Shown here in pieces: positions 15,264 through 59,804 of a stretch of DNA of 64,000 nucleotides. Under the pieces are notes generated by a model that made no database searches, was not told the origin of the DNA, and saw only the letters and a list, made by a program, of their open reading frames with translations. The translations under genes were made by a program, and so were the position numbers. Numbering within the stretch: position 1 is the first letter of the stretch; each line of letters starts with the position of its first letter. Source of the DNA: Ascidiella aspersa (taxonomy: Eukaryota); NCBI GenBank assembly GCA_963924565.1, contig OZ004614.1:22630001-22694000 (forward strand). The letters run 5' to 3'.

Positions 15264-18200
15264 ACGCTGCAATATGCAAGGGAAGGAACTTCGTGCTTTC
15301 AAGCAGCAAAGCTAACCAAACAACCTCCAAGTCAGCTTGCACTGGTGGTAACTTGACAAGTATTCCTGACGAAGCAACACAAAACCACATCAGCACTCTC
15401 GCAAGCAACAAGGTTGGCAACGGGTGGACTGGAGGTAGTGAAGTCTGTAAGTAACAAGAAGCAAAAATGTTTAAATTAACTTAAATGCAAGTGATAATTT
15501 GTAAGCATATGGAAACATAACTTTATCTTAAACGGTTTAATGTTGTTAAACTGCATATTTTTTACCAGACGCTTTCATCGGCGGGGAACGTGATGGATAC
15601 GACTTTAAGTGGCCAGATGGAACAACATTTTTAACCTCCACAGGTTTGAATAAAACTAAGTGTTACGTGCTTAAGTGAATTTTTTTAAGGAGGGAGGAAT
15701 GTTACGTGCTTAATTAGCACTACAAAATTATCACCGGTTGCTAATTACGCCGACTGTAAATTCTAACATTCATTATTAATTTTGCGCCTTTGTTCTTAAA
15801 TGTAGGGCTAGGAATTAGGTTTTCGCATTTCGAGACATGTATAATTGTATATTAACGTAATATTCTTGTGCGCTGTGGTGTTCGCCGTTAATTGGACTTT
15901 AGACATGTTTTTTCCTGTCTCCAAACATTTCTGCAAATCTCACAATCATTTATCGCTTGTTTTCCGGCGCGGTTTAACTTCTCACTAAAAGGTCCGCCCA
16001 ATGTTATCTTTCCACGAAACGGCCGCCCTGTAAGGCAGGCCTGGGGTTTCCGGGAGCGCGTCGGTTCCCGTGAAAAGGAGTTTCGTTTTAGCGTATATTA
16101 CGAGCGGCTCACCGCCTACAGCAAAGAGAGACGTCTGGGTGTAGCCTTGTGAAATTAGCGAGTAAAACTTTAAGTTTCATTATGCTCTGTCTGTCGCTTT
16201 TGTAAGTAATTGTGTGTGTCTAAGTGTCATTATTGTCTGTGGTGTGGTAATATTCTACTCTTGCAACCAATACATCTGTACATTGGGTTTTCTTGTTGTG
16301 GTCTTTAATATAAGTTCTCTTTGGTAGGTTATTTATTGCCCGAAAATTAAGGACTCACAGCGACTTTACAGGAGGCCTAGGTAATTTTCTAGAATTACTA
16401 GTAAAGTCGTAACACTAAGTATAAGGTTTGTCCGATAATTTCGGATTCGATAACCTGATGCCAAATGATAGTATCGGTACTCGTCCGATACTAAGATAGT
16501 ATCGGTGTTGATCCAATACCAAATTTATTTGTGCATAAAAGCCATGTTTTGCGATCCAACGTACAGTTCAAACGGTGATTTTTTTGTAAAATGTTACACT
16601 AAACATTAAAGATAAATAGTATCTCGAACGCGAAAACAAATTTCGGTCTAGTACCCTTAAAATCATTATCTTGCTACAATTTCACCAATTTTGTCTTTTT
16701 GACCATAAGGAATGACGTCATTTGGTATCGGAATATAATACCAAGCAACATTTTTTACTCCGTGTGCCAGTTTATGAATACTGTCAAAATATCAACAACT
16801 CGCGTGCCAAACATTTTTCTATGTTTAGTTTTGCACTGGCAACCAGGGATACAGTTTTCTGCCTTTTTAGTTTCGAAATTTTGTCGTGCGCATGCGCACG
16901 CGTCGGATTCAAGTCCCGAGACCGACTCTGCAGACCTGTGATCTGACATCTGATTTACGTTTATTTTTTGGAATATACTTCCATTTTTTTCAACCTATAC
17001 CTAGAAATGTTAGCCATAAGTTTCGTTTTTTGTTGGTTTCTCAGCCGCACAAAAATACACGTGCTTGATTTTTATGTAGAACAGTGGTTCTCAACCTTTT
17101 TAGCATACGGACCGGTAAAATTTCAAAATTTTGCAGACCGAAGGACATTGAAATATTAAAATAAACCCAAAATGTAATAACGACAAAAGTAAGACCAAAA
17201 CGAGTTGTCGCCTACTTTAAAGCAGTTGGGAAGAACACTTGCAGCATTGTGACGTAAAATAAAATCCAAAGTAGACCCTTAACTCAATGTTACGTCACAA
17301 TGCTGCAAATTACGGAACTGGCGAAGTTCGAAATTTTATGGATAAGCGGCGTCTTCTTTCATTTTGCAATTAAGATATAAACTTGTAATATATTTGACCG
17401 ACCGGCCGGAAAGTTGACGCGCACCGGCGGTTGAGAACCACTGATGTAGAATATCCTGCATTAACGCAGTGAGCGTCACACCACTTTTGGGGTATTGTGA
17501 CGTAATAAGATCGGTTAGTCGTAAACAACAAGTTTAACGCACACACAAATTGTTAAATACAACAGTTAAGACAGATATTCGTGACACGAACTGGCAATGT
17601 GTTCAATGATTTAGTTAACGCTAGTGTTAGTGATGTAATAATAATGTTAATAAAGTGGTAATGATGAGTAATGGTTGTACTTACGTAAAGTGATATAATA
17701 TGAGCGTTAAATCACTTGGCGTGCCCTAATTTTGATAAACCTTTATAATCCGATATAATTATTGTGGGGCCCGGGACAGTATTTCGGGGGCCAGGGCATA
17801 TATACTTTAAACTAAGCTAGTTAAACTCAAATTTGTAGTTTGCATTCTGGCGACATAAACCTCGGTAATGACATTCTGAGAATCGTGTTTCTAAAACGTA
17901 AGTTTACGGGGGCACACATTTTTTGGAGCCTGATAAGGGCGCCCCTTGCGTGAAAGGTTAAAAATATAATGCTTTATTGATATTTTACAACAGCGTTTCT
18001 GTGGGGTAATTATTGGTCCACATCGGGATACAACGGATGGGCTGGTTATGGGCCTTCAGGCAACGGAACATGTATGGCGTTTAGAGGAACACGGTCTGGT
18101 TCATCCGGCAATTATACTTACACTTGGAAGTGGGTGGATGCGTTGTGTTCTGCAAAATTCTACTACATCTGTGAAAAACAAGGTAACGTGAATAAAGTTG

Positions 18201-21200
18201 ATAAAATACATATTGCCGGAACTTATGTTATTTTTTTTCCTTTCGCCCGTATATGCAAACAATTTTTAACGAATTTGTAATTTGTAGATTATTTGTCCAA
18301 TTTATCCTGGAAATTTTAACCAAGGGTTTGAAAGAGTTTTATGTTCAAGTAATCGAGCTCAAATTAAAACTAAACGATATATATTTATAATGACCATACA
18401 AAATGACAATATTGGCGTTAAGAGATATCAAGAAAAAATGCAATCTGTTTTCGCTGTAGGTGGAATCCATTATCATATTATTGCAAGACTGTGTTGCAAG
18501 ACTGTGTTGATAAAGTTGTCTAGTTTACTAGAGTATAAATAAAGAAACGTTATGTATTAAGATTAGATTGTTTCAATTTTTGGCATCTTTCCATGTAGAA
18601 CAGCGTATTGCAAGAATTTAAAAAAAAAAATGAGTCATTTAGATTTAAACAGAAATTGAATTACGCCGAACTTTCATTTAGTTAGACAATGAGATAGAAC
18701 TTAAAATCATTTATAGAATACATTAAATTTCGTATAGTAGGGGTGTGCAACTGTCAGCCGGCAAAGCGACATTTTGTACTTCTCTTCAGGTTTTGGTTTT
18801 ACACATAGCCTACTCTCTACCAAGCTTGCCTTGCAAATCTACCGACAATACTAGTTCAGTTTAATATGTTTTCTCTGTATATTCCTTACCAATCCCGTGG
18901 CTTTAAAAATGGCATTCGTTTAACGCATGTGAATGACATTTTTGCAAACTATAGGACACACAAAATCCCTCACCGGAGAGTACTGAATATTGAAAACCTG
19001 GAAAATAGCCTTAATCTTAGTAAAAAATTATATAAATGCTATACTTTTCGTAAACTCAGTATGAGTCATGAAAACTGTTAGCGTACAATATGGAAACACT
19101 TGTATTCATGGAAGGTGTAACACAGGCAGGGATGTCGCATTTTATCCCGATAACGATACCCGATATTTTGGGCAAAAAAGTATCGCGACTGAGCCGATAC
19201 CTCATGACATTATATCCTTGCTCAAATAGGCAAAATAGATGAAATTAAAAATGTCTAAATGCATTTTTTCCCCGATTGGTAGGCCAAAATTTGCGTTATC
19301 GTTAAAAAGTTTGCTTATGTCCAGTTATACCGACTAAGTTTTGATATATTTACGGATTCCGCAATTTGGTGTTGGTTATTGGCCAAATCCAATAACGTTG
19401 GACATCCTTACGTTTTAGATAAATTAGAGCATAAATATGATTTTGCCAACAAAAAACAAAAAGAATAAATAAATTTTGTTTTTTATAAGACCAGGGTTCA
19501 CCATGTTTTTAAAACATCCACAAGGGATGAATAGGACAGCCAAGAAGGGATTAGGGTTGAAATTAATGATGTAATTCGGGGTGGGGTTTGGGACTGATTC
19601 TGGCCAATTAGGTCTTATTCCGATTAATTTAGGACTTCTTCCAATTTAGACGGTATTACAACTATAATTAATTAGTCCTATTTTGTTCTTATTCTGAATG
19701 TTTTATTCTAAGGTTAATGTTGTTTTTATTTAATAAAATATTAATAACGTGTAGTTTTTTGACAAAAATAAGTAAATAAATAAAAATAAAATATATTATA
19801 TTTTTTTCTTACAAACCTAGTTTCACGCAACGTAAATGTGACGTCACCGACCAGCACACCAACATTGGGAAGCAATTTGAAATTCACAGGAACCATCTCT
19901 GGCTTTTACAACGAACCTCTTAACGTGGTTGTCGCTCATGGTGGAACAAACACCAAGGTTTCAAGTAATTTCGTTGGAACGAGCTTTACTTACGTCATCA
20001 ACCCTGTCATCTCGACAGACAACGGAGATTTCGTGTTCACTGCAACAAATACTGCTGGAACTTGTTCTGGTTCCACAACAGTTCGACTTACCGTCGGTAA
20101 ATCCCGTGCTTTAAATATTTTAAATTAAGTTAGGTGCTATATAACAATGTATAAACTATATAACAAAGACAATCAATAACAATTAGTTGATAATTAAAAA
20201 AAGCGAAATAGTAACAAAGAAATATACAGGGTGTCCATAAAGTCTCTTTACAATTTAAAAAATTATTATAAAGTGAAATGATGAGATATCGCAATGAGGT
20301 TTGTTTTATGTTAATCAGTATTTCATAAAGTTTTTATTGACACATTAAATACACTTCTAAACATTTAATCAACATTTAATTAAAAACATCATTACTTTAT
20401 TTAATACACTTCTATATGGGCACCATTAGTTGCACGAAGCACATCTAAACGGTTAATTTAGAAATTTTGTCTGAAACAATAAATTTTAGTGCCAATAAAA
20501 ACTTTATGAAATACTGATTAAGATAAAACAAACCTCATAACCCTACTTCAAAAGAGCATAACAACAGGTTAGAGATAATATGGTTAACAATTAGGATTAG
20601 GTTGTTAAATTGGTTCGTCTGTGTTAAGCGTACAAATATTTTTGTTGGCATGGCAATTAAGTGCAACTTTTTAAACGGCGCCCATTGTTTCTTTTTTACT
20701 AGTTTTAATTTCGCGCACTACGTGGGTAGAAATATACACAAAGCTAATTGGTGCTACCCACACAAAAAGAACCTACAATACTTCCGTGTTATATAACCTG
20801 CTGGATACACTAATGTTTTTTTGTGATTTATAAAGTTTATATATGATTAAAACTGTCTGTCATCTTAAAGCTAACAATACAACCCACTATCTAATTTAAA
20901 CTTACCCGATGTGGCCTAACTAGAAATCATAATGCTGTCTTATTAACAGCTTTCATAAGAAAAACGTTGCTGAAACCTTTTTTAGGAATAAACGTTAGGT
21001 TTTTAAACAAAAATGGTTGCATTTACTTCTTATTTTTGCGGCTCCTCCGCCTCCAAATAATGTGAGGTTAACACCTTCACAAACACAAATCACAATTAGA
21101 TGGACAAATGCTCCTGGGTTTGTTACTTCGTACTTTGTGTATTGGAAACCAGTCGAAGGTTACTCTGGCTCATCAACTACAGTTAGTTCACCCACAGCAA

Positions 21201-24200
21201 GTTACACAATTAGTGGGTTGACTTCTATGAAAAGATACGAAGTACAAATTAAGAGTAGAAGTGGTTTAGTTCAAAGCACAACGGTTACACAAACGACTTC
21301 AACAGGTTTACAAATTGCTTAACAAATTAAATAACATATCGTAGTATATTGCATAATGTTGTCTAAACATTTTTCAATACATCGTTTGTATTTTGTAATT
21401 AGCTATTGGAAACCAACAATTATTACTGCAACCATAAAACAAAGCTAACTTTTCACTTGATATCGATTTCAGGTTCAGTTCTTGTCAGTTTTTCCAGCTT
21501 TTCACCACTAACAGTAACTCTTAAAGCGGCTGCATCTGTAACTTGCACTTGTTCGGGATATTACGAGCCACAATGCAGATGGTTCAGGTATTTGGAATTT
21601 GTCAAACTTTATTAATTGCTGCGTGTTTATCATACTGCCGATAGCCTAAAGATACGTTCTTATATAAGTGTCGGTAAAGAACTAATAACAGGAAGCCTTC
21701 TTACGGAACTGCAACTACACCATGCTCAACACCATGCAAGGTTTAACAACACACAAAAATAAGATACAAATGCAATATTTTTTTTACATATTCGGAGCAA
21801 TGTATAGTATTGATCGGAATAAGCTCTTATTGGCAAACTGGCTGTTGCAAGACACATTTTTATCTTCCAGCGCATTTCGTTTTTACTTTAACAGGAGCAA
21901 CGTCGAACAAACCACAGGTACTTCGACACAAGTTTATCAAACCTCCACCATAGCAGGTGGAAGTACGTCAGGAACATCTACACTTCACATCAACATTACA
22001 GATCCAAGTTACGCGGGTCATTACGTGTGTAAGGCCACCAACTGGGATGGAAGTGGAATAAAAACTAAAAATTTAACCATACATGGTAAGTAGTGGAAAA
22101 TTATATTCTTTTGTTTCTTCCTGCTTACACATACTTTAAAACGTCGTTTGTTTTTCTGACACAGTTAGGCCAACTATTGCAACCAGTAAGTCAGCTATAG
22201 ATTTTACTTCATACAACACTCCACAACAAGTTTACTGCGAATCGCGAGGTCACCCCAAGCCTACAGTTGATTGGACGAGGTAAGCATACGACTTACGGCC
22301 CACGGCAACTATTTGCGTTGTCCACATATCCTGAGCAGTCAATTGTAATTTGCCTACTGCCATGGAATTTTGCATCCTAGCTAACAGCTTTTGTGATAAA
22401 ATGTCCCACGCTTTGTGACTTAAAGCTAACAGCTGCGTAATATGTAATAGTGCTGAACGGATTTATTTTTATCTTGTGGTACTGGCATTAGTCGTAGTTC
22501 ATTTATACTTTGCACATTTAGTATGTGCTTTGAAGGTTGCTCGTTAAATTAATGTGGCTCTCGTCGTTTTTGGCCAACCATGTTGAATAACGTGGTGTGA
22601 GCAGTGCCATCTAAATTATCTTAACAGGAAGTTATTAAGTGAAACTTTAATTGGTTTAGATCTGGCTTTTCGGTTGCAACAAGCAGTGGTCTAAAAGTTC
22701 GTCAATTTCAAGCGAGCTCAACTGCTTTCTACGTAAAACAAACCCTCAACATCAGTCTTCAGAATGTTCTCGAATGTGGGGAGTATGTTTGCAAAGTTAC
22801 AAGCTCAGATGGAAGCGAAGAAACTAAGTCTGTATCAGTAACAGGTAAACTTAAACTAGATACACACGTTCGTCATTTGTAAAACTTTTTTGCATCGTGT
22901 TCGTTTATCCTAAATCAGAACACAAAATTTCCTTGTTTAAAAAAAATAGTTTCGCAAAACATGAAGTTAGTAGCGTTTATAACGGAATACAATAACAAGT
23001 ATCACATATCCCTAGTTCAACAGGAATAATATTAATCTAAACATTTTGCTGCTTTTGTTTCCCGAAACAACAAAAAGTATTTGGCTTATTGAATGACTAC
23101 AGCAAGTCTGGCGCAATTTCCTTTACGTATTATTTTAACTCACAGTAGCAACCCACGTTCCTTTAGTGCAGTGCTTTTCAACCTTTAAAATTTCCATCCG
23201 CACTTTTTTAATTCGAAAATTTCCATCCGCACCAAACAAGCACAGTAAGTTTGCAACGTTTGCTTTTATTTGTGAAATAACAATAAAGAATTTGTGTATT
23301 AAAACCATGAGCTAAGCATTGACCGATATAAAATAGATAGCTTAAGCTGCAATGAACCACTATACGAGACTATATTATTGTACCTTTAACGCATAAGTGG
23401 GCGAACGAGCTTATTCGATTACTGTATTACACATAATAAAATATAATAATGCATCATTTTCATCCGCACAATCATCCTTACGTTAGTCATCCTCATTACA
23501 ATTTTTTTATCCGTACAAGTGCGTGCCATCCCACGGTTGAAAAGCACTGCGTTAGTGAATAATATTAGTGAAAATAGTTTTTTAAAGCTTAGTGTTTAAA
23601 TTAAGGTTGCGCAGTCGAAGTCGGACTCGGAACTCGAGTAAGACCACTTAAAACTACCCGAGTTGCCAGTCCACGTGCGCATGCGCAGTTCCAAATTTTG
23701 AAGCTGATATGGCAGCAAACTGTAATTTGTAAAGACGTATTAGTTTATGGTGGATAACCGTGTAGAATTATATGACAATAAGTGGATTAATAATTATCCA
23801 CTGCATTTAGTTACGGCAATTGGCGGAATATAGGCTGTACAATCAGAGCCGGACTCCGGACTCGACGAAATCGCACATTTGGCCGGTGTCGGACTCTGGT
23901 TGATTTTTAACCGACTCCGTAGCCCTGGTTTAAATCGCTATAGTGACTTTTGTGGTGTTACGTGCCATCACTTCGCAACTTTATGAATGAAATTGACAAG
24001 CCAAATAAAAAGAAAAAGTTTTGCCTAATTATGAACACCAGATCATTTTACGTGGCTACTATATGCATGTTGATAAACATTATAATATATTCGCTATAGG
24101 GTGATAAATAGATTGCAAAAATTGTCACATTTGAAATTTTGACAATTTATTTCCAGTATTTCAAACTCACAAAACTTTTTTACATTGTTTCTATTAAACG

Positions 24201-27200
24201 ATTGTTATAGTTCAGCCGAACGTAACATTATCCACCAATGAGCTGACTGCAAATTATGGAGAATCGAGAATTGTTACTTGTACCAGCTACGGTTATCCAA
24301 TGCCAAACATCACGTGGAAAAAGTAAGTAGGCCTAATGTTTGTGAAATGCTTACGTTTTAGAAGCAGTGTACAGCAACACTGTATAAACATACTTACGTT
24401 TGTCAGACAATGATGTAACTTATTTTTCTTTTTAAGGAAACTCAAATGACAAATAGACTTATTATTAGAAGGTTCAACTATTTCACAGATTTCTTTAAAT
24501 AAGCATAAATCTCTTTGTTCCGACGGTCGTCGAGTAAAGACGTTATACAGTCGCACATGCGTGTGGCCCATTGTTTATTATTATCAACTTTGGCTGCTCC
24601 GTAAATAACGTTTAAATATTTAAAAGAAGTGTAGGCTCTGTACAGCGGACCTGCAGGCTAAGTCACACAAAGGGGGTTGTTACGTTGAAACGCGCATCTT
24701 AACCAGTGTTGTAAACAAGTCCTTTTGAACTGACTTGAGTCCCAGTCAAGTCATTTGTAAAGTACCTTCAGTCCAAGACAAGTCATGACATGACTTAAGT
24801 CATTACAACACTTCCTTGCCCTAACCTACAATGACGACAGTCTCCAAATCCTGGTGTAATGACGCCAAATTCACACAATACACACAAGTAGCAGCGAAGC
24901 ACGTAACACGCCAACGAAGTACTTTCATGTGACTAACAGGACAAAGCACGGTTTCTAAACAATAAAGTTTCAAATAACATTCAGCTTTTCACATTCTTAT
25001 TTCTAAGTTTTTTAAGTTTCGCTAAACACAAAGTCCAACAATTAGTTACTTAGCAAAGTACAGCACAGCTCACTATTCAAACTTATTGCTACCGTACATG
25101 CATTTATGAAAGAAGTATTGCGCTTTAGGATCTCAAAAAATCTCGGTGTAAAAATATTGAAGCTTTGGTAATTGTTGAAAATAAGACAAAATGAAGACTT
25201 TAGTCAAAACGAAGGACATTTCTTAAAAATGAGGACAATAATTTTTCTAGCACATAAGCTTTCGAAATAAGGACAAATCTTAGAAATACGGACAGTATTG
25301 CAACCCTGGTTATAGACAAAGTTTAAGAAACTTTGTTTTTTAAATACTTACTTTTAGGGTAAACTTTCTGCTCTCAACCGACGCTTATCAGACCATTTCC
25401 ACCGACAGCACAAATTATCGGAAAACTGCAAATCTACATCTAACAAATATTGACGTTGGTTTGTCGGGGCGTTATTATTGCGAAGCAAATAACTCAGAAA
25501 CAGTTCACAACAAAACATTTATTCTCGAAGGTAACTGGCGTTTTGACTCAAGGTAACTTTTTTGCTCCGGTAATCATTGTGACAAACCTTTATATTTTTA
25601 GTTCGAGCAAATATATCTCTTTCACCTTCATTGAAATGGAAAGTAACACATTTTCCCGAGTCATTCTACGTCGATTGTGTGTCTTTTGGATGGCGCCAGC
25701 CCAACGTTTCTTGGACAAGGTACGGTCTATATAAAGTTTACCCAATTGGTGCATTTGGTTTGTTTTATTGTTCAATGCTGATCTTAGCACAAATAAAATT
25801 AAAAAAATATATATTTTCTAACAAAGACATGTTTATATTTTATTTTATCAAAACAATTTTTTTCACGCAAAACCTGAGCATTGTGCATGGACGTTTTAAA
25901 ATACTATTTGAGTATGTCAAATGTATCAGCCTAAAATAAGGTTTTAATAGCTGGTTTATTTTTAAACTGAACGCGCATTTATTTCATTCAGAAATGACCA
26001 GCCAGTAACCGCATCTACGTGGGTTGAAGTGCACCAAGTTACTACAGCAGTTTCCACATTCCAAGTGAACTCGCGTCTTCACTTCACAGCCACAAGCATT
26101 GAACAAGTTGGAGCTTACAAGTGCACAGCAAGCAACAACATTCCTCCATCCGTTGTGAACACAACGTTCTATTTGCATGGTAAGGTCGCTTTCTTCACAC
26201 TTTGGAGAGCCATGTGCAGGGATGTTTGATAATTGATGTTTCAAAAAATTATCGCCCCACGATCAGATAACAAGTTAAAAAACTGCTTTAGCGTTGAGAC
26301 GTTTAGCTACAACCAGCTGTTAACCAACTATTTATTTTATATAAATTTATCGGACAAGATTGAATCGCTGAGTTGGATCGCATATCATAGCGAGAATTCC
26401 TCTTTTGATTTGATATCGTATCGGTACCGATACTCCGTTTGAATATTATCGGACATCACGAGCCATTGTTGGAGAGATGCTTATAAAGATTTTTTTTATA
26501 ATTTAACGTTTTTGTTGCGAATTGGTTTCAGCCAAGGCAAACATCTCCTTGTCAACGAAAACAGTTTCGCTTAAAGACGGCATCAGGACGCAAGTTAATT
26601 GCACATCATTCGGATTTCCGCAACCACAAGTTTACTGGACAAAGTAAGACTTTATATGAATGAACGGGAATTTACCAGTTTACTTTATTGAGCAACTTCG
26701 TTTTGAACAGAGGTTCCATGAACGTGTCAAGCAATGCTGGCGATGATTTATTTCAAACAGTTCACAAAGAGGCAATTTACAAGACTGTCGCGTCTATTGA
26801 GTTTGTAAAGGCTTCGCCCACTACAACAGGAAGTTTCGTATGCCACGCCAGCAACACAGTCGGTGAAAATAACTTAACTTCACTGCAAGAAACTTTAACG
26901 GTTACTGGTAGGTATTTATTTTTTATGTTTTTGTAGACTGATTACACAACTTGTACTTGATACGTTCACAGATACTTAGCGGTGTTATCTAGTTTCAACG
27001 TTTAACACGTTCGACTTTATATTGCGCATTTAAAGTAAGGGCGAATCCAGGAATTAATTTTGCGGGCCATCAAAATTTTATTTGTGACGTCTTTAGTTCG
27101 TCATACCGTGACGTCATAAAACAACTAGCCTAATCTTAAAAACACCGCTGTTCTAGAGCGAATCTGTGCGCAAATATGGTAGCCAATTTCAAGCTAATCG

Positions 27201-30200
27201 CGTGTAGCACGAAAAAATGCTTCATTTGTTTAACTTAGTAAAATTTTAATATAAAATTATACGTTATGCACCAGATATACAAAATGGTTAGATATGGAAT
27301 TTATCAAATAATTTGTCAAAAAACACAAAGTAGGTGGAATTTAGTTATAAAAAGGGCGTGGTCTGGTGCACTCCTTGACCCACCCCTGATTTAAATTTCC
27401 GATATATTTTCCCCTTTTTAGTCAAACCCACTTTTATGAATTCGTCAATTCCAAGTGAATTCAGCCAATCACAGTCGTTGAATTGCACGTTTGCCGCCGA
27501 CCAGTCGACCACCTTTCACTGGACCATCAACCAACAAAACGTCACAATCAACAGCGACGCGTCGCCAACCTACGTCACAATTCACAGGACAAACTACACA
27601 GTGACGTCACAACTAGCAATAGAAGCTTCCGCAATATTGGGCGCCAACGCAAGTGTGAAGTGTTGGGCTGAAAATGGAGAAGGTGTCTCAAGCAATGTTG
27701 CTGTAATCAACAAAGGTAGTGTATTAAAGTAAAGCACGATTTATTTATTCATATTTTTGTTACTTTCAGTTATAATCGTAAGATCTAAATTATGGTATAT
27801 GCCACAATGATTTACGAAAATAATATATTTAAATGTAGAATGTAGATTAACGAAAATTGATGATTGGAATTTTTTTATTATGAGTCAAATAACGTGTGTT
27901 TATATTAAGTAAATGTTGAACATGTAAACATGTTGAAAATATTTGAAAGTTTTCTGTTGTGTTTTCCAGTCAATATATGTTTAACCACGCCTAATCTTAA
28001 AATATTGATTTAACTTCTGTAAATTTCCTTCAACTATTTGATAGACTTGCTCTTCGATAATGGACAGTTTTTCGTCCGCTACCAGCTCCTCAGAAGTCAA
28101 GCTGATGCCAAACTGCATTGTGAAAACAAGGGAGGGAAATTACCGTCATCTGAATATCTAAATGGAAGTTCTTTACCTGTCTTACCTACAAACCAAGCAG
28201 TCTGGACAAATGGTAGGTTTTATGATGTGGAAATGCGATGTGTGATTTATTGTTAATATTGACATTTTATATTAAAGCAACAAAGGCAAGTCACACAAGC
28301 TGCACAACGTTTTACAACGGAGCTACTCAATCCATGAATTGCAGCGCTTCTTTACCAGTCCTGTGTGTATTTCCTGGTAAGTAAGAAGCAGTAGATAGAG
28401 CCTAATTTCCATACAGCCTAATTATTTTGACGTTTATTGTTGATGCGCTATAGCTCCCATTTCAGTCTAATTGTAGTAATAGCACACTTCGTATTTAGTC
28501 TAATCGTCTTATTAAAGTTTCTCGCCTTATAGTAAAATGACCTCGCCCCTATTTATATAAAAAAAATACATCATCTCATTTCTAACACTTTTTAACGAGT
28601 TTAACCGTGTTTAAAGACGTTTTTGAAACGTTCAGCAGACAACATTAAAAAATAAAACGGAACATTTGTAATTCAAAACAGTTGTTTGACAAAATCTTTG
28701 TTTGATTTTGCTTAACAATGGCTTTAAACTAACAGTTTACTATAGTTGTGCAATGTACATATCGTATGTTTTGTATGTTTATTGGGCTAATTTTGAAAGC
28801 ACTTTCCGTTTCAGTGGTTGATGTTACCGAAGTTACAAAATGCCACCGCGACAAAATAATTGTGAAGTGGATTGACGAAACCAAATATTCACGGAATTTC
28901 AACTTTCAGCTGATTGCACAAAGTTCTGACAAATTGATTAACATCGTTAAAAATTATAAACAAACGGCTTCTACGAATTACATTTACACAACAACATTTC
29001 CAAAACTGGTTGGCAACGAAAAATACAATATTCAAGTAAATGATATTTACAATATTAATTAACATTCTTTTCCATAACTTAATGTTCATAAATTATTTTT
29101 TAAAACATTAATATATTATTTCTTAGATCAAGCTGTTTCCTGATTTTTGGAAAGTTCCGCAAACACCTTCGGTTTCTGGATCAACTTCAGATGTTTTTGA
29201 GAAAGTTGTTTCTCAACTTACTCTTGAAAATCAAATCTGCCAAGTCAGAATCACAATGCCTCAGCCAACTGTAGCAGCCATCTTAAGCGTTAAGGTTCGA
29301 GTTCCTCCATTATTTTCTATTGTTATGGACAGGAAGTCATTGAATTGATTGCTCCATATTTAATTTCAGCTGAATATAAAGAGAAACATCAAAAACCAAA
29401 GTGAAATCTCTGAAATCGCTATGACACCTTCAGTTTTAATGAACCGTAATTTTTCAATAAATCGAGGTGAAACGATTACCATGGATTTTCATCCCATGAC
29501 GTCATCTTGTAGAAGTACAGTTCTTCCGGTAGATGGCGTGTGTTACTTGCCACCAGGTAATAAAAAATACTTTTATGTTTTTTTTTTGTTAACATTTACC
29601 CGATAGATTCATTTGTTTAGATGGTTAGGCACCAGAAAATAATATCGTGTTGCCAACCTCTTGTTATGCAATCATATCGATATTTTTTTGTGCTATGTAG
29701 ATTTGTCAAAGATTTCAACACCACATATTTCAACAACGCCTATTTTAAGCACCGTAAAACAACCGAATCTCATCTCATCTGTAGGTGTACCAGTGGGTGT
29801 TGCCTGCGCTGTAATAGTTGTCATATGTGCTGCTGTTGTTGTCTTCATTAAAAGGTAACCAACAATATACAGACAATGTTTCTTAACGTTAAATCAAACT
29901 TATCACGAATATACCTCTTAATACAGAAACCAAACTCGGTCTAGTTTGGGAAAAAGGCCAAGCAACAATATGAATCCGGGATCGCCAAACAACAAAGGTA
30001 GTATTCTCCACGTTTTTTTCCGTTGGGGTTATATTGGCAATCGTATTTTCGCCGTTGTAACTCTCATGCAATGAAACTCTTTAAATTTGAACTGCAATAT
30101 AACATGGATAAATAAGACGCTGAAAATATGCGACAATGTGATAAGATTATTCCGTACAACGTTTCCTTAATATAACATTCATCAAGTTACCCAAGCCTAT

Positions 30201-30875
30201 AAACTCACGTTTCAAGGAATTAATAAAGCTTTGTGTTCGAAAGTTTAGGCAAGTTTTGTCCACCAATGTAGCTTAGCAAATTAGACCAGTCTAAACATAT
30301 GCGCAGTACCAAGTTTGAAAGCCAATGTGGCCGCAAACTGTAAATGGCAAAGATGGAATAGCATATGGTGAAATATTTTCAACAACTTTAGGAGCGTGGG
30401 TGATTTATGTGACACACTATGAGTGGATTGTCGTATAAACCTGCTACTATAGTTACGTAAACGGGTGAAAAACAGTCAGGAGTAGGACTCTGGTTGTTTT
30501 TTTCATTTAGATTGAATCCGCTCCAAATAACAACAAAGTTTTTCGATATTAACATTATTCGCAGTCAACAACCCTGATATTGGTAATGCTCAAACTTCAC
30601 GTCACAACTACGTCAACACCAGCTTTGCAGTTTCCCCAAATGCTGACGTCATCAAAGCATCCGGTGACGATCCTGACTACGTCATGCCAAATGTTGACGT
30701 CATCAAAGCATCCAGTGACGATCCCGACTACGTCATGCCAAATGTCTACCTCAAAGAGAAAAGTGCCACTTACGAAAACGGAAATGTTGGAGCTCAGAGC
30801 GTGGAAGAAAACACTGCATACGAGCAGTTTGGTAATAGTGATGCTGTGCAATCTGTATACGAGAAAGTTAAATAG
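15264..30875 (+). CDS. Copy A: CTLD-Ig-FN3-Ig6-CTLD-FN3-like-TM receptor with Tyr-motif/ITIM tail (~1390 aa without leader)
   Basis: 24 phase-compatible, stop-free exons. CTLD 15264-15446, 15569-15643, 17994-18182; Ig1 19821-20096; FN3 21042-21305 (acceptor GG, not AG); Ig2 21473-21587+21895-22085; Ig3 22165-22279+22660-22844; Ig4 24211-24322+25358-25530; Ig5 25602-25719+25992-26179; Ig6 26532-26643+26711-26907; Ig7 27422-27715; CTLD2 28045-28212+28278-28376; FN3-like 28815-29035, 29127-29294, 29370-29556; stalk/TM 29701-29854; tail 29927-29997, 30565-30875. Leader exon not located. Confidence 0.85.
15661..16414 (+). mobile_element. Internally deleted LTR retrotransposon remnant (near-solo LTR)
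   Basis: TGTTACG...CGTAACA termini, 5-bp TSD CTAAG (15656-15660, 16415-16419), and a polypurine tract AAGGAGGGAGGAA (15687-15699) directly before a second LTR start at 15700. Confidence 0.85.
17082..17443. mobile_element. hAT-type MITE
   Basis: TIRs CAGTGGTTCTCAACC / GGTTGAGAACCACTG with 8-bp TSD ATGTAGAA; the empty site is present at 1349-1356 in homologous sequence. Confidence 0.92.
20226..20540. mobile_element. Tc1/mariner-like MITE fragment
   Basis: TA|CAGGGTGTCCATAAAGTC terminus and internal inverted segments (ATGAGGTTTGTTTTAT.TTAATCAGTATTTCATAAAGTTTTTATTG and its reverse complement near 20490-20540); right end missing. Confidence 0.6.
23169..23549. mobile_element. hAT-type MITE
   Basis: TIRs CAGTGCTTTTCAACC / GGTTGAAAAGCACTG; TSD CTTTAGTG / CGTTAGTG. 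Confidence 0.88.
23602..23927. mobile_element. MITE of the CAGGGCTGCGGAGTCGG family
   Basis: Right end AACCGACTCCGTAGCCCTG; 8-bp TSD GTTTAAAT; homologous to 52453-52813 and ~41770-42165. Confidence 0.8.
30636..30745 (+). repeat. 51-bp in-frame tandem duplication in the copy A tail
   Basis: PNADVIKASGDDPDYVM / PNVDVIKASSDDPDYVM (30636-30686, 30687-30737); copy B has a single unit. Confidence 0.95.
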
Positions 30876-31154
30876 AATTATTCAACTTAACAGACCTTTG
30901 AAAACAAAAAAATATTACATTAAATGTACTGGTATGTACAACAAATAAGCTACCACGAACATAAACAATGTTAAGTTTAAATGTCTTGTCTATTGTATTG
31001 CAAGTGGTGTAACCTATTAAACAATAACAGTCATTGTGGTCACACTTATGCCGACATGTTTTAATCTTACTATTTTCCGATATATTTCAATACCACCTTT
31101 ATATATATATACCATATTTTAATATATTTTGTTTCTTTGTCTACATTTTGATTT

Positions 31155-32254
31155 TAGTTTACAATTTTAAGATGTGCATCATACATGCTTCAAAACTTCG
31201 CTTTTGCGACATTAAGTCACTTACTTTTTATCCATTTTCTGCTTATTTTATCCATTTTCTGTTTATGTTACCAGAAATGTGAGAAATTGTGCAATTCCAT
31301 CCATAAAAACAAATATACCAGCCAACAAACTCAACTGTATATTTTAGCCTTTCACTTTTTTCGCCAAACCCAAACCCCCAGCACTGCAATCTTACTGACC
31401 ATACGAGAACAGCTACTAATTAGTCAACGTATCTCAATTTTATGCATTTTTTTTTCTTTGATTATTATATCGCTCCTTCCGATTAGCGATTTAATAAAAT
31501 GACTTATTACCAAAATTAAAGTTAAAAGTGTTATACGGAAATCCCTGTTAGTAGTATAAACGTCATCTTTAATTGACCAACACGCCCACTGAGTGAATAA
31601 TTACCTCCCAATGGTGATCAGCTGCTTCGGATCTGACGCATCTGTCCTTTGGGCTAAATTCCAAAAAAAAAACATTTATATACTATATGAAAAACAAACA
31701 TTTAGCGTCTCTTTCTTTGCTCTAGTTTACAATTTAAGGTGTGCATTATACATGATGCCATACTTAGCTTTTGTGACATTGTGTCACTAACTTTTTATCC
31801 ATGTTCTGTTTATTTTACCAGCAATGTAAGAAATTGTGCAACAAAAAAAAAATATATATATACCAGCCAACAAACTCAACTGTATATTTTAACCTTTCAC
31901 GTTTTTCGCCAAACCCAAACCCCCAGCATTGCAATCTTACTGACTATACGAGAACAGTTACTAATTAGTCAACGTGTCCCAATTTTATGCAGTTTTTTTT
32001 TTTATTATTAGCCTATATCGTCTCGATTTACTGAAATGATTTATTACCAAAATTAAACGTAAATGTAGCATTATGGAAATCCCTGGTGTTAGTATAAACG
32101 TCATCTTTGATTGACCAACAACTGAGTGAATAATTGCTCCCCAATAGTGGTTAGCTGCTTCGGATGCAATTAATCTGATCATTTGGGCTAAAATGAAAAA
32201 AACATTGATGTACTATAAGAAAAGCAAACATTTACCGTCTCTTTCTTTGCACTA
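31155..32254. repeat. ~550 bp tandem duplication downstream of copy A
   Basis: About 31155-31722 aligns with about 31723-32254 (e.g. ATATACCAGCCAACAAACTCAACTGTATATTTTA; CGCCAAACCCAAACCCCCAGCA). A diverged single copy follows copy B (~49050-49500). Confidence 0.85.
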
Positions 32255-34957: not shown

Positions 34958-37900
34958 ATGTTAATCTTATTTTTGTTATTGTTAATGTCCCTTCGGACCG
35001 ACAAAACAGGTTTGTAATGATTTTTATTATTACCAAACTTTTTTGAAAAAATTAGGAGTTTTTAACTAATATTTTATATACCAAACGATTACAGTTTCAA
35101 TTAAACAAGTATTTTCCATGTTACAATTCTCACCGTGCTAAAGTACTTTGTAATGTGTTCCAATGTATGGCTTAGTTTGGTATCAAGGAACTAGCCACCA
35201 ACCACGCTAAATGCTTTTTAACATACATATCCATTATTGTTTTTATAAACAATTTAATTTAGTTGTGTATGAAACAACAGCAACAATACGCTCAGAATTT
35301 AAAAAACAAAACTTTGTGAATTGACGCAATACTTTTTCAGCGGAAAATGTTTTGTGACAAATGTTTTGTTCCACTTTAAGTTTTTTCAAACTTTGTCATA
35401 TTGTATTGCGTTTATAACAACCGGCGTAGGGTATATTTATTGTGTTTCAGAAACTCTATAGATAAATTTAGTTTTGCGAAAGTGACACCAAATTCAGCCA
35501 ATAGCATTGAGTGTTTGTTTAGACGCTGCATTATGCAAGGGAAGGAACTTCGTGCTTTCAAGCCACAAGGTAATGCAAGCAGACGCCAAGAAAAATTGCA
35601 TTTCTGGAGGTGGTAACTTGGCAAGTATTCCTGATGAAGCAACACAAAACCACCTCAGCACTCTTGCAAGCGTTCATACCAGCTGGGCATGGAAGGGAGG
35701 TAACGTAGAATGTAAGTACCTAGAAATGTGCAAATATCGATTGAAATTAAATTAGCAATAAAAAACTGTTTTCTCCAGACGCTTTCATCGGCGGGGAACG
35801 GATTGGAAACGAATACAAGTGGCCAGATGGAACAACATTTGCAACCAAATTATCAGGTGTGAATAATTAGGTCCCATAAAATCTACACATTTGTTTTTCT
35901 CAAGTTATTCGTATGTTTTAATTCTTGGTTTACTAATACTACATTCTATGTTAAAAGCGATTAAAGATTTAATGTTTTACCTAATACTGCTTGAATCGAG
36001 TTACTTGTCGGTTGCTGCGTCAAACAAACCACAGTTATTTGATAATTATATTTACGTGAAATGATAAACATCGAAATGCCAATCGTATATTAATCTATTG
36101 CAAATAAAAGTTTAATTAATATCACATCCGACACCGTCGTAATAATGAACCCACAGCATAATTACAGTATTATTTTTAAAATGTTGCACTAAGTCTAATT
36201 ATATTTTCGTTGTACGTTGTCAATAATGAGGTATGTACAAATGGCCGTATAGACGTTATATTGTTGCTTTTTTATTATTTTATCCAAATTTGTCATTGTA
36301 TTTAGACTCAAACTACTTTTGTCCCATTATTGCTTTATTTGAATCAGATAATAGTTGGTTCACATCGGGATACAACGAATGGATAAGTCGAAGTGGACCT
36401 TCAGGCAATGGACGTTGTATGGTGTTTACTGGAACACGATCCGGCTCATCAGGCAGCTATACTTGGAAGTGGGGAGATGCGGCGTGTACTGGAGTATTCT
36501 ACTACATTTGCGAATATCAAGGTAAAGTTAACTTTTCACAAACAGCAAATGACCAGGGACTTGCTTTAAATGCTGCATCATAGTTGTTGTGCAAAGTTTT
36601 AATGGACACATGGTTAAATCAAACAGGTTCTCTGGCGAACCCGTGCGTAATTATGCAGGACTACGTGTAAACCCGGTATTATGAAAAAAACGGAAAAAAA
36701 ATCTTAAATTGGGAGAAGCCTCATTGAATTAAAATCCTCAAATATTCAGAGTGTTTCTACTATATATGTGAGCACCATATAAACTGCAAATACGGTGCTG
36801 CATTGCTTTTTTTGCGATATAGATCCCGCAACTAAATGTATTTTAGGGCTTGTTAAAACAACAGACCAAATGTATAATTTAACTTTATTTCAACAAACAG
36901 AATCATTGTATTGCGAGTACACTCAACTTATACCTATATTGATTAACATCAATATCGGTCTATCATATGCTACAAATCCAACATAATTGTCATTGTGTAT
37001 GAGACTACGGTACAGTTATCATGTTCTTACAAACGCAGTTTCCCGTAACTTGACTGTGACTTCACCGACCAGCACACCAACATTGGGAAGCAATTTGACA
37101 TTCACAGGAACCATCTCTGGCTTTTACAACAACCCTCTTAACGTGAGTGTTGCTCATGGTGGAACAAACACCAACGTTGAAACTAATTTCTTTGAAACGA
37201 GGTTTACTTACGTCATCAACCACGTCGCCTTATCACACAACGGAGATTTCGTGTTCACTGCAAGCAATAGTGCTACAAGGTGTTTTTTTGCGGATACAGT
37301 CAAGATTATAGTTGGTAAGAAAAAATGCGGTATTTTATTTTAGACAAAAATTGAAATTCAAAAGCTTGGAATTTTTTTTAAAGTTAAGAATTACGTATGG
37401 CCCGTGGTTGTATGGAAATTATGTCTATTCCCCAAAATTGTGACGTTGTGTATCAGTGGGCCGTGTTCAATTGGTTTCGTCTGTAGGTCAGTAAGTCAAT
37501 TTCTTATCAAATATTTATTTTTTTTAGGTTCTCCTGCACTGCATCTCCCATTTACGATACTGACACTAAGCATAAACTCATTGACATCTGTGACTTGCAC
37601 ATGTTCGGGATATCACCAACCTCAGTGCAGATGGTTCAGGTATAATAGAACATTGTCACATTGGCTCCATGAGTACACGATGCCATATCTACACCTAAAC
37701 TATACTCTTTTCTTGTTTCAACTTAAAAATGCGAAAAACAATTGAATCTTTAAGGGATCTGTGCTGCAACTTATCAAACATAAGTAATCGAATATGCGAG
37801 GTAACACAAAATTTTATAACCTAACGTCCAACAAAACTTAAACCTCTCCTGTTGATGTTAATTTTCCAAGGACTTGTATTAAATGTCGCTCCATTGCTAT

Positions 37901-40900
37901 TCATTTTACTATACACATTAATGCATCAATAAAACTCTTCGGTTTCTGTTGATTTTTTACTACTATCATTATTATTTTTTTACTCCAACATAATACAATA
38001 ATAACATAATAATATTATTATAGACATAATATGTTACATTTTGTGGCGAAATAAAAACAAAATTATGAATTTCTTGTTATTTCAACCATATTGTTAACTA
38101 AAATTATATCAAAAAAGCATCGGTAATTCAAACAGCTTTTTTAATATGGTAAGGCTTAGATGTTTCTATAGATTTTAAGTTTAAAATAACTGATTAGGAC
38201 AAATAAATATAAAAATACATTTAGTGTTATAGAGAAGCTAAAAATAATTTTAAAATGTCTAGAATAAGACAAAACTTGACCTGTGAAAAATTAAGAAAGC
38301 GGTATTCTGTCATTTTTGATTTGCCTAGTCATTTGTATAACAAAAGCGGATTGTCTTGAGACCATGCAGAAGCTTTATCAAACTTTTATTCTAGTTCTAC
38401 GTCCTTTTTGTTTTAAGGAACAACGTTGAGGTATCTTCCAGTTCAACTGCAGTTTACCAAGTACCAAGTAGAACCAGTAGAGGATCAACTGGCAACTCTG
38501 TTCTTTACATCAGAATAAACTACGACGCTGGAAACGGGGGTTTGTACGAATGTAGGACGACCAACTGGGCTGGAAGTGGCGTGGAAAGCAAGACTCTAGC
38601 TGTCCGTGGTAAGTAAAGCAACTGGCTTTTTTACGTAAAGGTGCCTTAACATCTATTTAATAGCAGAATATAGTGACCTATTGCTTAACATTACTACATC
38701 AAACATGCCGAAAGCAAAGCGTCGCTTATAACTGCCCCTTATTTTCCTAGCCTATATAAGTTATCTTCCTTTAATGCAGAGGCGGGCAACTTCTCCGGTC
38801 GGCGGGCCAGATATGGGAAAATAAAGTACTTGGTGGGCCGGATTAGGTAATGCCAAAGCTTGGATGTTTTGGCGCATAATTGCTGCTAAAGTTGTACTAT
38901 TTATACAATTTTATTGCAACACTTTTATTGCACATCAAACAAACTGCTTTCTTCCCGACCTAAAAAATAAACAAGTACAGAACTTGGTCAACCAAAAATC
39001 AGTATATTTGGAATGTTATAAGATAACAATATTTCGCAACTAAAAGTGTCAATACTAATCATGTATTTAGTAGCGAAATATATTCATCTTATAACATCCA
39101 AACATTCTTTATGATTGATGTGCAACCATAATCGTTTGTTTTCACAATTCGGATTCAGGCAGATTTTGTCATTCGAAAGAAAATTCTGATTATTGTCGAT
39201 TTGAGTGAAAAGTATTTTTGCATCCAATTCGCCACATTCTGTGTCAAACTTACGTTTCTTAGCAAATCCATGGGAAAATATTTATTTTAAATTGTAAATA
39301 TAATGTTAACACAAAACAAAGAAACCCGACCCGCGGGCCGTATGTTGCCCGCCCCTGCTTTAATATAAAGGCAATGTATACACACAGGATATAATCATGT
39401 TTTGTTTATTAAGCGCCCCCGGTTTACAAGCCATATCTAAACTAGTGTTTAACTTTAATTGCGCTACTGAAGACGTTTTGCATCGCCTGAAACTTTAATC
39501 AACTTCACACACTGATGCCTTGTATTGTTATTTTTATCCAAGTAACGGCGACTATAGCAACATCAACCACCTCGTTAAACCTTGTACACGGAGCAACTCA
39601 ACAAGTTAATTGTGAATCAAGAGGAAATCCCATACCACAAGTCAGTTGGCTGAGGTGGGTTTTGCATGACAACCAGTGGCGTAGCCAACCCAAAATTTTG
39701 GGGCATGGCAAAAAGTTTAAACTTTTTTGTTTAGTTTTCACCATTGTATTAACTGTCGTAACGAACACAAATAACAATGCCAGCAAACCGTTTAGAGCAG
39801 CAACTGACTGAGTGTGTATACTCAAAAACCATTAACGCAATACTCAGACTAAAAGTAGTATTTAATGTGCAAACGTAATGTTAACATTAATCGTTTGTGA
39901 TGTAACAGTGCATGACAATTGAAGGTGTGGCATGCCTGTGATCGACTGTTGTGGTACTGCTCATGAAAGCTACAAAACAAATTATAATTAAGGGTAAAAT
40001 ATTTATAAATTTTGAGGGGGACGTGGTCCCCCATTTTCCTATTACAACTAGACTGCCGTAAGGTTCGAACTTACGGCCTCGGCCATACTGGGATCGTCGC
40101 TCTACCAACTTAGTCGCAGACCACAATTGTTGTAGACGTATGTGCTCATAGGTTTTATTCACTACATGATATTTTATTAATATACAAATTTAGGAATGGT
40201 TCATTAGTTTCGACCGACCCAACCCACAACGTTTACCAATCCACATATTCAAGCGGATATTACGTGAAGCGAACCCTGCACATCAGACTTGTGAACGTTC
40301 ATGATGGTGGAAGCTACGTTTGTAAAGTTGCAGCAAACTCAGCTATTGGAGAACTAACACGAACGTTAACTGTTACAGGTAACGTAGGTTTCATGACACA
40401 ATTTATTACAATAAAATGTGTTTACGGTTAAAGAAGTTTAATAAGTTATTTTTATGTAGAAAAGATTATTATTAGAATTTGTTTTTGCACTGCTATTCGA
40501 AAAATAAAATAAGCTTTAGACAGAAGCAAACAATGTTAGCTTTAACAGTCCCTAACGAATGGCCTTAGGCGCATGATTGGATAGACACACCAGTAAAATA
40601 TAATAACTCACCCCATTCGAACGTCATTAGTTTAAAGTATTAGTTTTTCAAAATAGTACACCAACAGCCATCGCAGACACGCCGAATCTGATAATCAATG
40701 ATGCAAGCAAGGCAGTTTAGAGAAACAACGAAATTGCAGTGAGGTTCGAACTCACGACCTCGGCTACACCGGGACTGTCGCTCTACCAACTGAGCTACAC
40801 AGGCTCAGAGTGGACCGAGTCGAGAAACAACCATAGGCCAAATGCTTGCTTGTTTTAGCAATTTATATTGAAGGGAATCAACAGTGCCATATCATCATTG

Positions 40901-43900
40901 AAAGATACAGACGTAGATGCGTTCAACAACTTTTCAACAATGAGATCACAGTTGTTGTACACATATGTGGGAACATCTTTCATTGAACGATATGGTAGTA
41001 AAGCGACGGTCCCGGTATGGCCGGAGGTCGTGAGTTTGAACCTTACTACAGGGTAGATGTTCACAACAAACATTTGTATAGCATCATTAGTTTTGTAAAA
41101 GATAACAATTTATAAAACGTTTTGCAGTGCAACCAAACATGACTTTATCAACACCGAACGTAATCACAGCCTACTACGGCGATAAATTGAACACATCAAG
41201 CTGTATCAGTTACGGTCATCCCACGCCTAATTTATATTGGAAGAGGTTAGTTGTGATTATTAACGGTTCAGTCTCAAACATTTTTACTGGAATCAATTTT
41301 GATTCTTTAATTGCTGACCACACTATTTTTTTGAAAAATAAATAAAAATCAAATAAATAATCTGTTGGATAATTATTTTAATGTACAAATCAGAAAGAAT
41401 AAAACATTAAAATTAAAATTTTGGGGGTGCTGAATTAAACATATGTTACGCGTACCCCTTAAAAGTTCTGAAAACTGAAACTGAGAGATTCGCGGGCCAG
41501 AGTGTGCAAACCACTGGGTGACTGTCTTCGAACGCTAATAAATTGACGGAAATGAATTTAGTACGGGTGGTGCTGCGGTCTCTTCCAACATCAATGATCT
41601 GTATTATCAAACGAACCTGACTGAAGCTGCGAAATACAAATCAACAGCAACTCTCCACATTCCAAAAGCAATGGTTGAAGTGGCAGGAAAATACAACTGC
41701 ATCGCCCAAAACGGAGGAATTGTGAAGACTGCAATTCTGGAAATATTAAGTAAGTGTCATACTGTGAACCAGGGCTGCGGAGTCGGTTTAGAACAACTCG
41801 AGTGCGACTCCGGCTTAAAAACTAAGTGAAATCCTGAGTACGACTCCGGCAAATAAACCGACTTCGTCAAGTCCCTCGTCCGACCCATGAGTCCTGTATT
41901 TCAGTCATCTAATAAAAAGGACGAATATACAGCAATCCACCAATAGCGGTAGTCATATAACTCATCCACCCACACAACGTTGATTGCATATAATTAATCC
42001 ATTCCACCTTTACGGTTTATAATATTTGGTCTTATCGATTGCGAACCTGCTACTGTGCAAGCGCACGTCAGACTCAGCAGTTTAGTGTTATTCGTGACAA
42101 CTTTAGTTAAATAAACAGACCTCGACGAGTCCCGAGTCTTGAGTCTGCCTCTGACTCTGCTGTCTTGGTCTAAATACCGCATGTAAATAAAACCGTATTC
42201 TTCCACTTAATTTCAAAATGTTTTCTCTATAAAAATGTAAAATCGCGTAGTAAGTGTCAAAACTCACAGTTTAATATAAACTTTTGTTGAAAAATACATT
42301 AAGCAGTATACCTTTATCACTTTTGGCATTTCCTTAATTTAATTACTATCGTTCAAATGATTTAACGAAACAAGTACCAGAGTTTATAAATGGGTACCGT
42401 TGTTGAGAGGCATGTTAATTATTTACGTAAAAAGTAATTTTGAAATCCCAGTTGAGTAATTCATCAAATAGATATACTTTGACCTGATGAAGCACGGTTG
42501 TGCGAAAGCTTGTCGAGAATCAAATACAATTTGGCTTTATACAGTGCCACCTGATTTCTCTATATCAAATCATTTGTGTCTGAGTCAAGTCATTTGCTAA
42601 AAAACCTGAGTCAAGTGAAATTATTTAAAAACAATGACTTAAGTGCACTAGTCATTACAACTTAAGCGCACTAGTCATTACAACACTAATCGTTGCACAT
42701 AGGGCCACACAATATTTCAGTATTATCAGTTTTAACATTTTTAATGTTTTCAGTCCACGCCAACATTTCACTTTCCCCATCATCGCCTTGGAAGATCCCA
42801 GTGTTTCCAGCTAGTTTCCACGTGGATTGCGTGTCTTATGGATGGCGGCCACCAACAGTCACATGGAGCATGTAATTTTTTGCAGTAATAACTAGTAAAT
42901 AATAATGAATCTGCAACAATATGTAGTGAAACCTCAAAATAATAAACCATATAATGATCGAGTTTGTTTTAGAGAAACAAAATGGTACATTTCTTGTTCG
43001 TTTGATTCATATGCTGACCATATAACAATATTTCCAGGTATTTGGTTGTACTTAAAAATAACCTCTAAAAACGTTAAACTTAGCAGCAGAAAAGCGACTA
43101 ATTTTAAATGTAATTTTAATCCAACTTGTGAATGGCTTATGTGCTTTAGCTTTTGTTCTGATCCAATTCGTGTTTTGTCAAACATACTTCTTCGTCCAAC
43201 GGCATTTTCAGCCTGTATGCTAAAAAGTACTAATATCACTTTAGAAGTATTAGTTCATTCTTATGGAAATAAATTGCGTTTGAACTAAATTGATTGTAAA
43301 TTATTTGGCCTTGTAGTTTAAAGTATAGTTTATTGTCTAGCTTTTAAGGATTGTGTAAATCTAATTGTGATATGTATTAGAAAAAGTAAAATGTTTCAAT
43401 TTAATTATATTATAATTAAAGCATAAAAATAAATCTTGGTAGCCAAGTTCGTTTAATAGCTAAAAAAGTTAGGCCTTATTTAAAGCTTAAAACCAAAACT
43501 GTTGTCTACATCGTTTTTGTAGAAACTCACAAACTATCAGCTCCAATGCGGCATCTCAAGTGCATCAAAGAACAACCATCAACATTCCAACTAGCCAACA
43601 GATTGGTCGTCTCCAGTTTAACGCAGCAAACATCGAGCAAGTTGGAGTTTACAAATGCACAGCAAGCAACAACAAAGACAACGCTCATGCTGCTAACACT
43701 ACGTTTCAATTTCAAGGTAGCGATATACTTATAAGACGATGTAGCGAAATTATTACTGTTGTTGCGGCATTGTATCAATTATAAAATTATTTTTCGGAAT
43801 CACGGAAGCGACTCCTTAATTTTTTATTAATTTTTGCAGCAAAGGCCAACATATCTCTCTCGTCCGCAACAATTTCCCTCAAAGGCTGTAAACAGCAACA

Positions 43901-59742: not shown

Positions 59743-59804
59743 GTAAGTAGTGTTTGTCCAACGCCTATGTATGTAACATTGAAAAAAAAAAATTTCATTT
59801 CTAC

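Follow-up and report, generated by a model that had tools for sequence, protein, structure and literature searches.

Genes A and B, located in a 64,000-nucleotide stretch of Ascidiella aspersa DNA (the window; contig OZ004614.1, positions 22,630,001 to 22,694,000), represent a class that is sister to receptor phosphatases but has no phosphatase itself. Their products end in a non-catalytic tail carrying conserved tyrosine motifs. The genes of the two classes are clustered and have similar ectodomains and different signalling ends, and the outer domains appear to have been exchanged or homogenised between the classes. This pairing of phosphatase and tail is the new part, and represents a new variant of paired-receptor organisation. 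The phosphatase-bearing class, the main point of the locus, was overlooked in the first-pass annotation of this DNA, which dealt with the tail motifs.

Genes A and B and their tyrosine-motif tails

Both genes are predicted to encode single-pass receptors of about 1,300 aa with lectin, Ig, and FN3 domains (Table 1). The gene A model (15264–30875) is open over 1,299 codons, has canonical GT-AG introns and consistent phases, and leaves out one FN3 exon that has no AG acceptor. The GG acceptor on this exon was found in one of ten copies, and the common leader exon, present in B and in the third family gene of the window, C, is missing from A; for these two reasons, A may be decaying. A candidate leader of another type within the family lies at 11560–11617. 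Per-exon Pfam searches revealed weak matches to C-type lectin and, in the split exons, to Ig domains, fn3 matches above the cut-off, and no matches in the A and B tails. ATTAAA/AATAAA signals are present downstream of the tail stop. As was proposed earlier, the tails are non-catalytic: both end in a stop codon and include no PTP domain. No PTP match was located near the window among the matches listed (150 of 156; 150 of 491 candidates scored).

Table 1. Features of genes A and B (positions within the window)
Feature	Position	Strand	Details
Candidate leader exon of A	11560..11617	+	Phase 1; resembles the leader of a paralogue at 24.546 Mb
Ectodomain exons of A: C-type lectin, Ig, FN3 (GG acceptor), split Ig domains, Ig, lectin-like	15264..28376	+	
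Membrane-proximal FN3-like exon and two unassigned exons of A	28815..29556	+	27–29% identity to phosphatase class
Ser/Thr/Pro stalk and transmembrane exon of A	29701..29854	+	Phase 1 to 2; helix without charged residue
Juxtamembrane exon of A	29927..29997	+	Phase 2 to 1, as in phosphatase class
Last exon of A, tyrosine-motif tail	30565..30875	+	102 codons and stop; phase-1 AG acceptor, TAG end
NYVN (YxN motif, putatively Grb2-type)	30606..30617	+	Tyr codon 30609
51-bp tandem duplication giving two DYVMP (YxxP) modules	30644..30745	+	49/51 identical
TYEN	30768..30779	+	Tyr codon 30771
TAYEQF	30813..30830	+	Tyr codon 30819; also fits a Tyr-x-x-hydrophobic sorting signal
SVYEKV, terminal match to ITIM consensus	30852..30869	+	Tyr codon 30858
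Gene B	34958..48590	+	Leader exon 34958–35009; open 1,305-codon model (35523–48590), architecture as in A
Last exon of B, paralogous tail	48310..48590	+	Same motif set plus NDYD; one DYVMP

The motifs previously listed as common to the A and B tails (NYVN, DYVMP, TYEN, TAYEQF, and SVYEKV) were all located in a single frame, and the 51-bp duplication said to give gene A a second DYVMP was confirmed. Its copies occupy positions 30644–30694 and 30695–30745, with the DYVMP Tyr codons at 30678 and 30729. A contig of run X3, which may share the study of the assembly, covers positions 30639–30942, including the duplication, with one difference and no gap. The motif list was incomplete in leaving out the Tyr at 30747 (VYL/AYV), which 85% of 20 distinct tails retain. 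The extra DYD of gene B is indeed present, but it is not a gain in B: 7 of 16 tails have Tyr at the aligned position, 2 have Phe there, and the Tyr was lost in A.

Genomic evidence supports the splice frame of the last exon of A. The +1 frame, open over 114–122 codons in A and B, was rejected: its stops are scattered from codon 39 to codon 172 in 23 tails, and it also requires a different splice phase. The stop position is fixed in the tail frame alone. In one RNA run bearing the same species label, about 6% of which was read, signal was found in bins from 25520 to 31378 at a depth of up to 0.61, to which reads from close paralogues could contribute. Every contributing read was a first mate mapped to the minus strand, which agrees with sense transcription if the library is of a common stranded type. 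Junctions above the threshold were absent from this thinly covering run, and no spliced read spanned the last junction; the frame therefore rests on genomic evidence.

A search of the genome yielded 36 matches, every one on contig C8 (29 candidates scored). Tail exons occupy at least 27 loci of this one chromosome, a lower bound since they were counted in the fetched stretches. Some array copies share identical whole blocks and could be assembly duplicates. The DYVxP motif is present in all 27 tails, NY[VA]N in 26, YEQ[FL] in 25, a terminal SVY in 24, YEN in 13, and the full ITIM consensus in 12. Twelve tails end with SVY[ED][KR]VK, 11 with SVY(E/V)RAY, and one with SVYERTY, while three are frameshifted or truncated; YEN is missing from the SVYxRAY subfamily. 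PI3K sites (YxxM) and PTB sites (NPxY) were found in none of the 27 tails. A single DYVxP copy is typical (25 of 27 tails), with two copies in A and four in the tail of locus L013, and the tail of L011 has a short extra YVMP; more than one duplication of the module has taken place, as seen in A, L013, and L011.

In shuffled tails, some ITIM match appeared in 26% (A) or 20% (B) of cases, an ITIM match within the last 8 residues in about 1%, and an equal number of SH2-type motifs in 1.1% or 2.5%. Given such chance matches, conservation, rather than a regular expression, is the real evidence for the motifs. After removal of four damaged tails (L019, L021, L023, and L024), all 23 intact tails shared four invariant Tyr columns, with a mean dN/dS of 0.28–0.48 among these tails, and only 28% of non-Tyr columns were equally conserved (20 distinct tails). 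The tyrosines thus passed the conservation check suggested in the first-pass annotation, among paralogues. Beyond this genome, the tail profile gave no matches among 1.84 billion representatives searched, the membrane-proximal exon gave no homologues among 9 candidates scored, the Ig alignment gave none among 7,984 candidates scored, and an Atlas search returned only leads under 0.9. These are weak negatives, and tail conservation was therefore tested among paralogues alone.

The phosphatase-bearing class and the origin of the tail exon

The genome search with the membrane-proximal exon also produced distant matches leading into phosphatase exons. At 14 loci, Ig, lectin-like, FN3-like, and two unassigned exons are followed by a transmembrane exon and then by PTP exons. 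The fetched 5′ ends of phosphatase genes contain lectin and Ig exons as in A and B, and four phosphatase genes are located inside a minus-strand array of tail genes at 24.0–24.56 Mb. In the first PTP domain (D1), the NRY motif, the WPD loop, and both halves of the P-loop are intact in 10 of the 11 loci scanned, while the eleventh has WPD, AGAGRTG, and a TAVHC variant. The second domain (D2) shows degeneration, and at its C-terminus the protein aligns with the YANF of PTPRE. The closest PTP matches were PTPRE and PTPRA (best hits of two D1 exons and a tblastn search). These features indicate that the sister class is a two-domain R4-like (RPTPα/ε-like) receptor phosphatase with an intact D1.

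An acidic juxtamembrane tyrosine motif, EENPYG, is encoded at all 14 phosphatase loci (L038, 4635–4799, and 13 relatives), and in the eight copies at 8–10 Mb the juxtamembrane exon is nearly identical. PTP genes are greatly expanded in the genome, yielding at least 156 matches when 150 of 491 candidates were scored, mostly in clusters on contig C6 (5.0, 7.2–8.0, and 28–32.6 Mb) and also on C8. The lectin/Ig/FN3 family ectodomain gave no match near the C6 PTP genes in six sampled stretches.

Identities between the classes were calculated from tblastn segments, with segments containing stops and genes missing a block dropped. The heads are 75%–77% identical between classes and 74%–81% within them (24 genes), and the membrane-proximal parts are 27%–29% identical between classes, 67%–89% within groups, and 64% between the two tail groups (33 genes). 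The membrane-proximal tree separated 13 phosphatases from 20 tail genes (split 100/100). The Ig1–3 tree separated an A-like group, comprising four tail genes and three phosphatases, from a B-like group, also at 100/100. A phosphatase clade was rejected for Ig1–3 (p-AU 5e-8) and for the head (p-AU 0.002), the head tree itself being poorly resolved and all trees unrooted. The gradient of identity from head to membrane is what recombination or conversion between the classes would leave as its mark.

The ectodomains also vary by internal duplication of multi-exon blocks (L044/L011, L046/L014, L013, L033, and L100–L101), and downstream of the window an Ig2–Ig3 block is repeated several times. Short forms (L017, L018, L020, and L041) have the arrangement lectin-Ig-FN3x3-TM-tail, with the same tail and without the Ig stack.

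Exon phases coincide in both classes: the transmembrane exon is 1–2, the juxtamembrane exon is 2–1, and the next exon has phase 1. The tail exon has the same place and phase as the NPYG-bearing juxtamembrane exon of the phosphatases, where, upon inspection against PTPRE, the acidic NPYG is followed by the start of D1. The NYVN tyrosine of the tail is the positional counterpart of the NPYG tyrosine. BLAST of the phosphatase juxtamembrane exon alone against PTPRE was not significant (E 5.6). Local comparisons of the tail with this exon were negative, with an hhalign probability of 1.8% and HMM scores among those of decoys. A global test anchored at the acceptor (18 pairs) gave z values of 6.8 and 5.3 for protein and 3.2 and 2.0 for DNA in the SVYxRAY subfamily, the best pair having been picked out by eye beforehand. 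The controls reached a maximum z of 1.75 in 114 comparisons, and gene A scored only 1.0–2.7.

On this evidence, the tail class was probably derived from a receptor phosphatase by truncation at the juxtamembrane exon. Because the trees are unrooted, it is the age of PTP domains that indicates which way the loss went. In such a history, a receptor phosphatase truncated at this point would have given rise to the tail class, and the truncated exon would later have grown new tyrosine motifs. In this way, one could trace how a phosphatase gene yields an immunoreceptor-like tail with tyrosine motifs, a question to which the usual answer is convergence.

Proposed function and relation to known receptors

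Since the outer domains are common with receptor phosphatases and the enzyme is missing, the tail is likely a docking site rather than a simple inhibitory switch. We give roughly even odds to the proposal that it serves as the kinase-phosphorylated docking platform of the phosphatase-less partner in a ligand-matched receptor pair. Exchange of outer exons would keep the two classes ligand-matched, and clustering would lead to phosphorylation of the tail by a Src-family kinase. SH2 domains of Grb2 prefer YxN, and those of Crk, Nck, and Abl prefer YxxP; accordingly placed motifs in the tail, pYVN and pYEN, could bind Grb2, and pYVxP could bind SH2 domains of the Crk/Nck type, while the sorting machinery or a protein with tandem SH2 domains could engage the terminal tyrosine pair. 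The genome encodes a Grb2-like sequence (contig C4, 6.52 Mb). The level of phosphorylation would be set by the catalytic sister, which could strip phosphate from the tail or, like RPTPα/ε and CD45, prime the kinase. The tail would then be the signal-carrying arm of the pair and not mainly an inhibitor.

The rather unlikely alternative of a classical inhibitory receptor assumes that the terminal pair TAYEQF/SVYEKV recruits an SHP2-like phosphatase, a built-in enzyme being swapped for a recruited one. The terminal ITIM proposed in the first-pass annotation is present insofar as SVYEKV fits S/I/V/L-x-Y-x-x-I/V/L in A and B, and a terminal match was rare in shuffled tails (about 1%). Thr is found at −2 of YEQ[FL] in 24 of 27 tails, the transmembrane helix has no charged residue, and the genome contains an SHP2-like sequence at 19.91 Mb of contig C4 (two SH2 matches adjoining PTP matches); ITIM-bearing ascidian receptors are also known (PMC12582321). 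However, across the family the consensus is limited to 12 of 27 tails, 11 others ending with SVYxRAY and one with SVYERTY, and the YxN and YxxP motifs are more invariant than the ITIM. Moreover, the residue at +1 is Glu, whereas ligands of the human SHP2 C-SH2 domain have hydrophobic residues at +1 and +3 (PMC12878756). The Glu and the low count make the label "inhibitory" weak. Thus, of the mixed inhibitory/adaptor platform suggested initially, the conserved non-catalytic tyrosine platform stands, and the inhibitory part is poorly founded. The first-pass annotation also suggested that motif copy number may tune the output; 25 of the 27 tails have one DYVxP copy.

Somewhat less likely still is ITAM-like activation, in which YEQF-x(8–11)-YE[KR]V would bind a Syk/ZAP-70-like tandem SH2 and oppose the catalytic sister. 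The terminal tyrosines are spaced by 8–11 residues in 24 tails, and the genome contains, on contig C1 at 3.42 and 31.72 Mb, two intronless frames with tandem SH2 and kinase domains (L091, 604–2424, and L092, 617–2443; 606 and 608 aa), Syk/ZAP-70-like by inspection. Src-ITAM-Syk signalling is described as functional in invertebrates (PMC4503800), and an ascidian ITAM receptor is on record (PMC5465252). But the strict ITAM, YxxL/I-x6-12-YxxL/I, was found in none of the 27 tails: the +3 residues are Phe (Leu in one tail) in the first motif and Val, Ala, or Thr in the second. The earlier description of YEQF and YEKV as having ITAM-like spacing with non-consensus +3 residues is therefore accurate.

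Equally improbable is a role in trafficking or as a decoy, with YEQF and YEKV acting as unphosphorylated Tyr-x-x-hydrophobic signals and the ligand being internalised or withheld from the phosphatase. YEQ[FL] occurs in 25 of 27 tails, the heads are common to the phosphatase class, and GYEQF is the lysosomal targeting signal of LAMP2A, with GYEQL as a variant (PMC10549195). The LAMP signal, though, wants Gly before the Tyr and a C-terminal location, while the tail motif has Ala and is internal, and this role would leave the invariant NYxN and DYVxP motifs and the repeated duplication of DYVxP unexplained. The adaptor platform under a catalytic sister is favoured because SVYEKV misses the C-SH2 preference, half of the family is without the +3 residue, and YEQF, which matches the LAMP2A core, is internal and has no preceding Gly. 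It is followed, at a distance, by ITIM inhibition and then by ITAM-like activation and sorting or decoy functions, which rank together.

The genes of the vertebrate KIR, Ly49, SIRP, and CEACAM receptors are clustered and have homogenised ligand-binding domains and differing signalling ends. Vertebrate paired receptors oppose an ITIM tail to a charged transmembrane segment with an ITAM adaptor, whereas the A/B family pairs an intrinsic phosphatase with a tyrosine tail and has no charged transmembrane residue. The phosphatase class resembles RPTPα/ε (PTPRA/PTPRE) in its tandem PTP domains and YANF end. R4 phosphatases are generally single-copy and have short glycosylated ectodomains; in contrast, the family described here has a modular ectodomain of about 1,100 aa and amplified genes, and A and B have no PTP domain.

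Expanded and clustered type I Ig-superfamily receptors, FcoR, have been reported in the ascidian Botryllus (PMC12582321). Like the A/B tails, their tails contain several tyrosine motifs, ITIMs, and C-terminal paired motifs (PMC12582321). Since tyrosine-tail receptor arrays of ascidians are already known, the motifs by themselves are nothing unusual. FcoR ectodomains have the arrangement Ig-Sushi-Ig-Ig, and the receptors are paired with fester genes (PMC12582321), while the A/B family is of the lectin/Ig/FN3 type, with no Sushi domain among the exons scanned by Pfam. Core-2 pairs of FcoR are 29–33 residues apart (PMC12582321), compared with 8–11 in the A/B family. The passages on FcoR mention no lectin, FN3, or phosphatase-bearing sister (PMC12582321).

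In the snail Biomphalaria, the LG5R and SudRes1 clusters encode scavenger-like receptors with a proposed immune role (PMC13712769, PMC12297450). There, too, receptors with a single ectodomain type either have tandem PTP domains or lack them (subgroups 1B and 1C), but this ectodomain is of the EGF/galactose-binding type, and the cytosolic parts of the non-catalytic members are said to be small and to lack signatures, unlike the tyrosine-rich A/B tails (PMC13712769, PMC12297450). Those passages report no tyrosine-motif tail, exon-level derivation, or test of head exchange (PMC13712769, PMC12297450). For Ciona, the passages of PMC5336234 treat R3 phosphatases only. In the open-access literature, we found no description of a lectin/Ig/FN3 family of this kind or of a receptor phosphatase giving rise to a receptor with a tyrosine tail.

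Taken as a whole, a new paired system in which a truncated phosphatase became a phosphotyrosine-scaffold twin, with ligand-binding exons still traded between the classes, is a tentative proposal that we hold at somewhat below even odds. If true, each specificity would exist both as an enzyme and as the substrate or opponent of that enzyme, and an invertebrate chordate would have a germline-diversified switch resembling CD45 plus an immunoreceptor. With matched pairs, the effects of a catalytic and of a docking end could be compared behind one head.

Other features of the window

Gene C (51039–59750) stops after an Ig half-exon, and downstream of it lies the 3′ portion of a 7TM gene of the secretin/adhesion type (60187–61410; Pfam 7tm_2, E 1.5e-15). 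A fusion of the two was considered and rejected, since their phases are incompatible at the final Ig half-exon unless this half-exon is skipped; gene C and the 7TM fragment are probably a rearrangement remnant. An intronless 395-aa frame at 6880–8064 encodes several hydrophobic segments and looks GPCR-like by eye, with no convincing Pfam match. Immediately 3′ of gene A, positions 31155–32254 contain a tandem duplication of about 570 bp, the copies of which are 80% identical.
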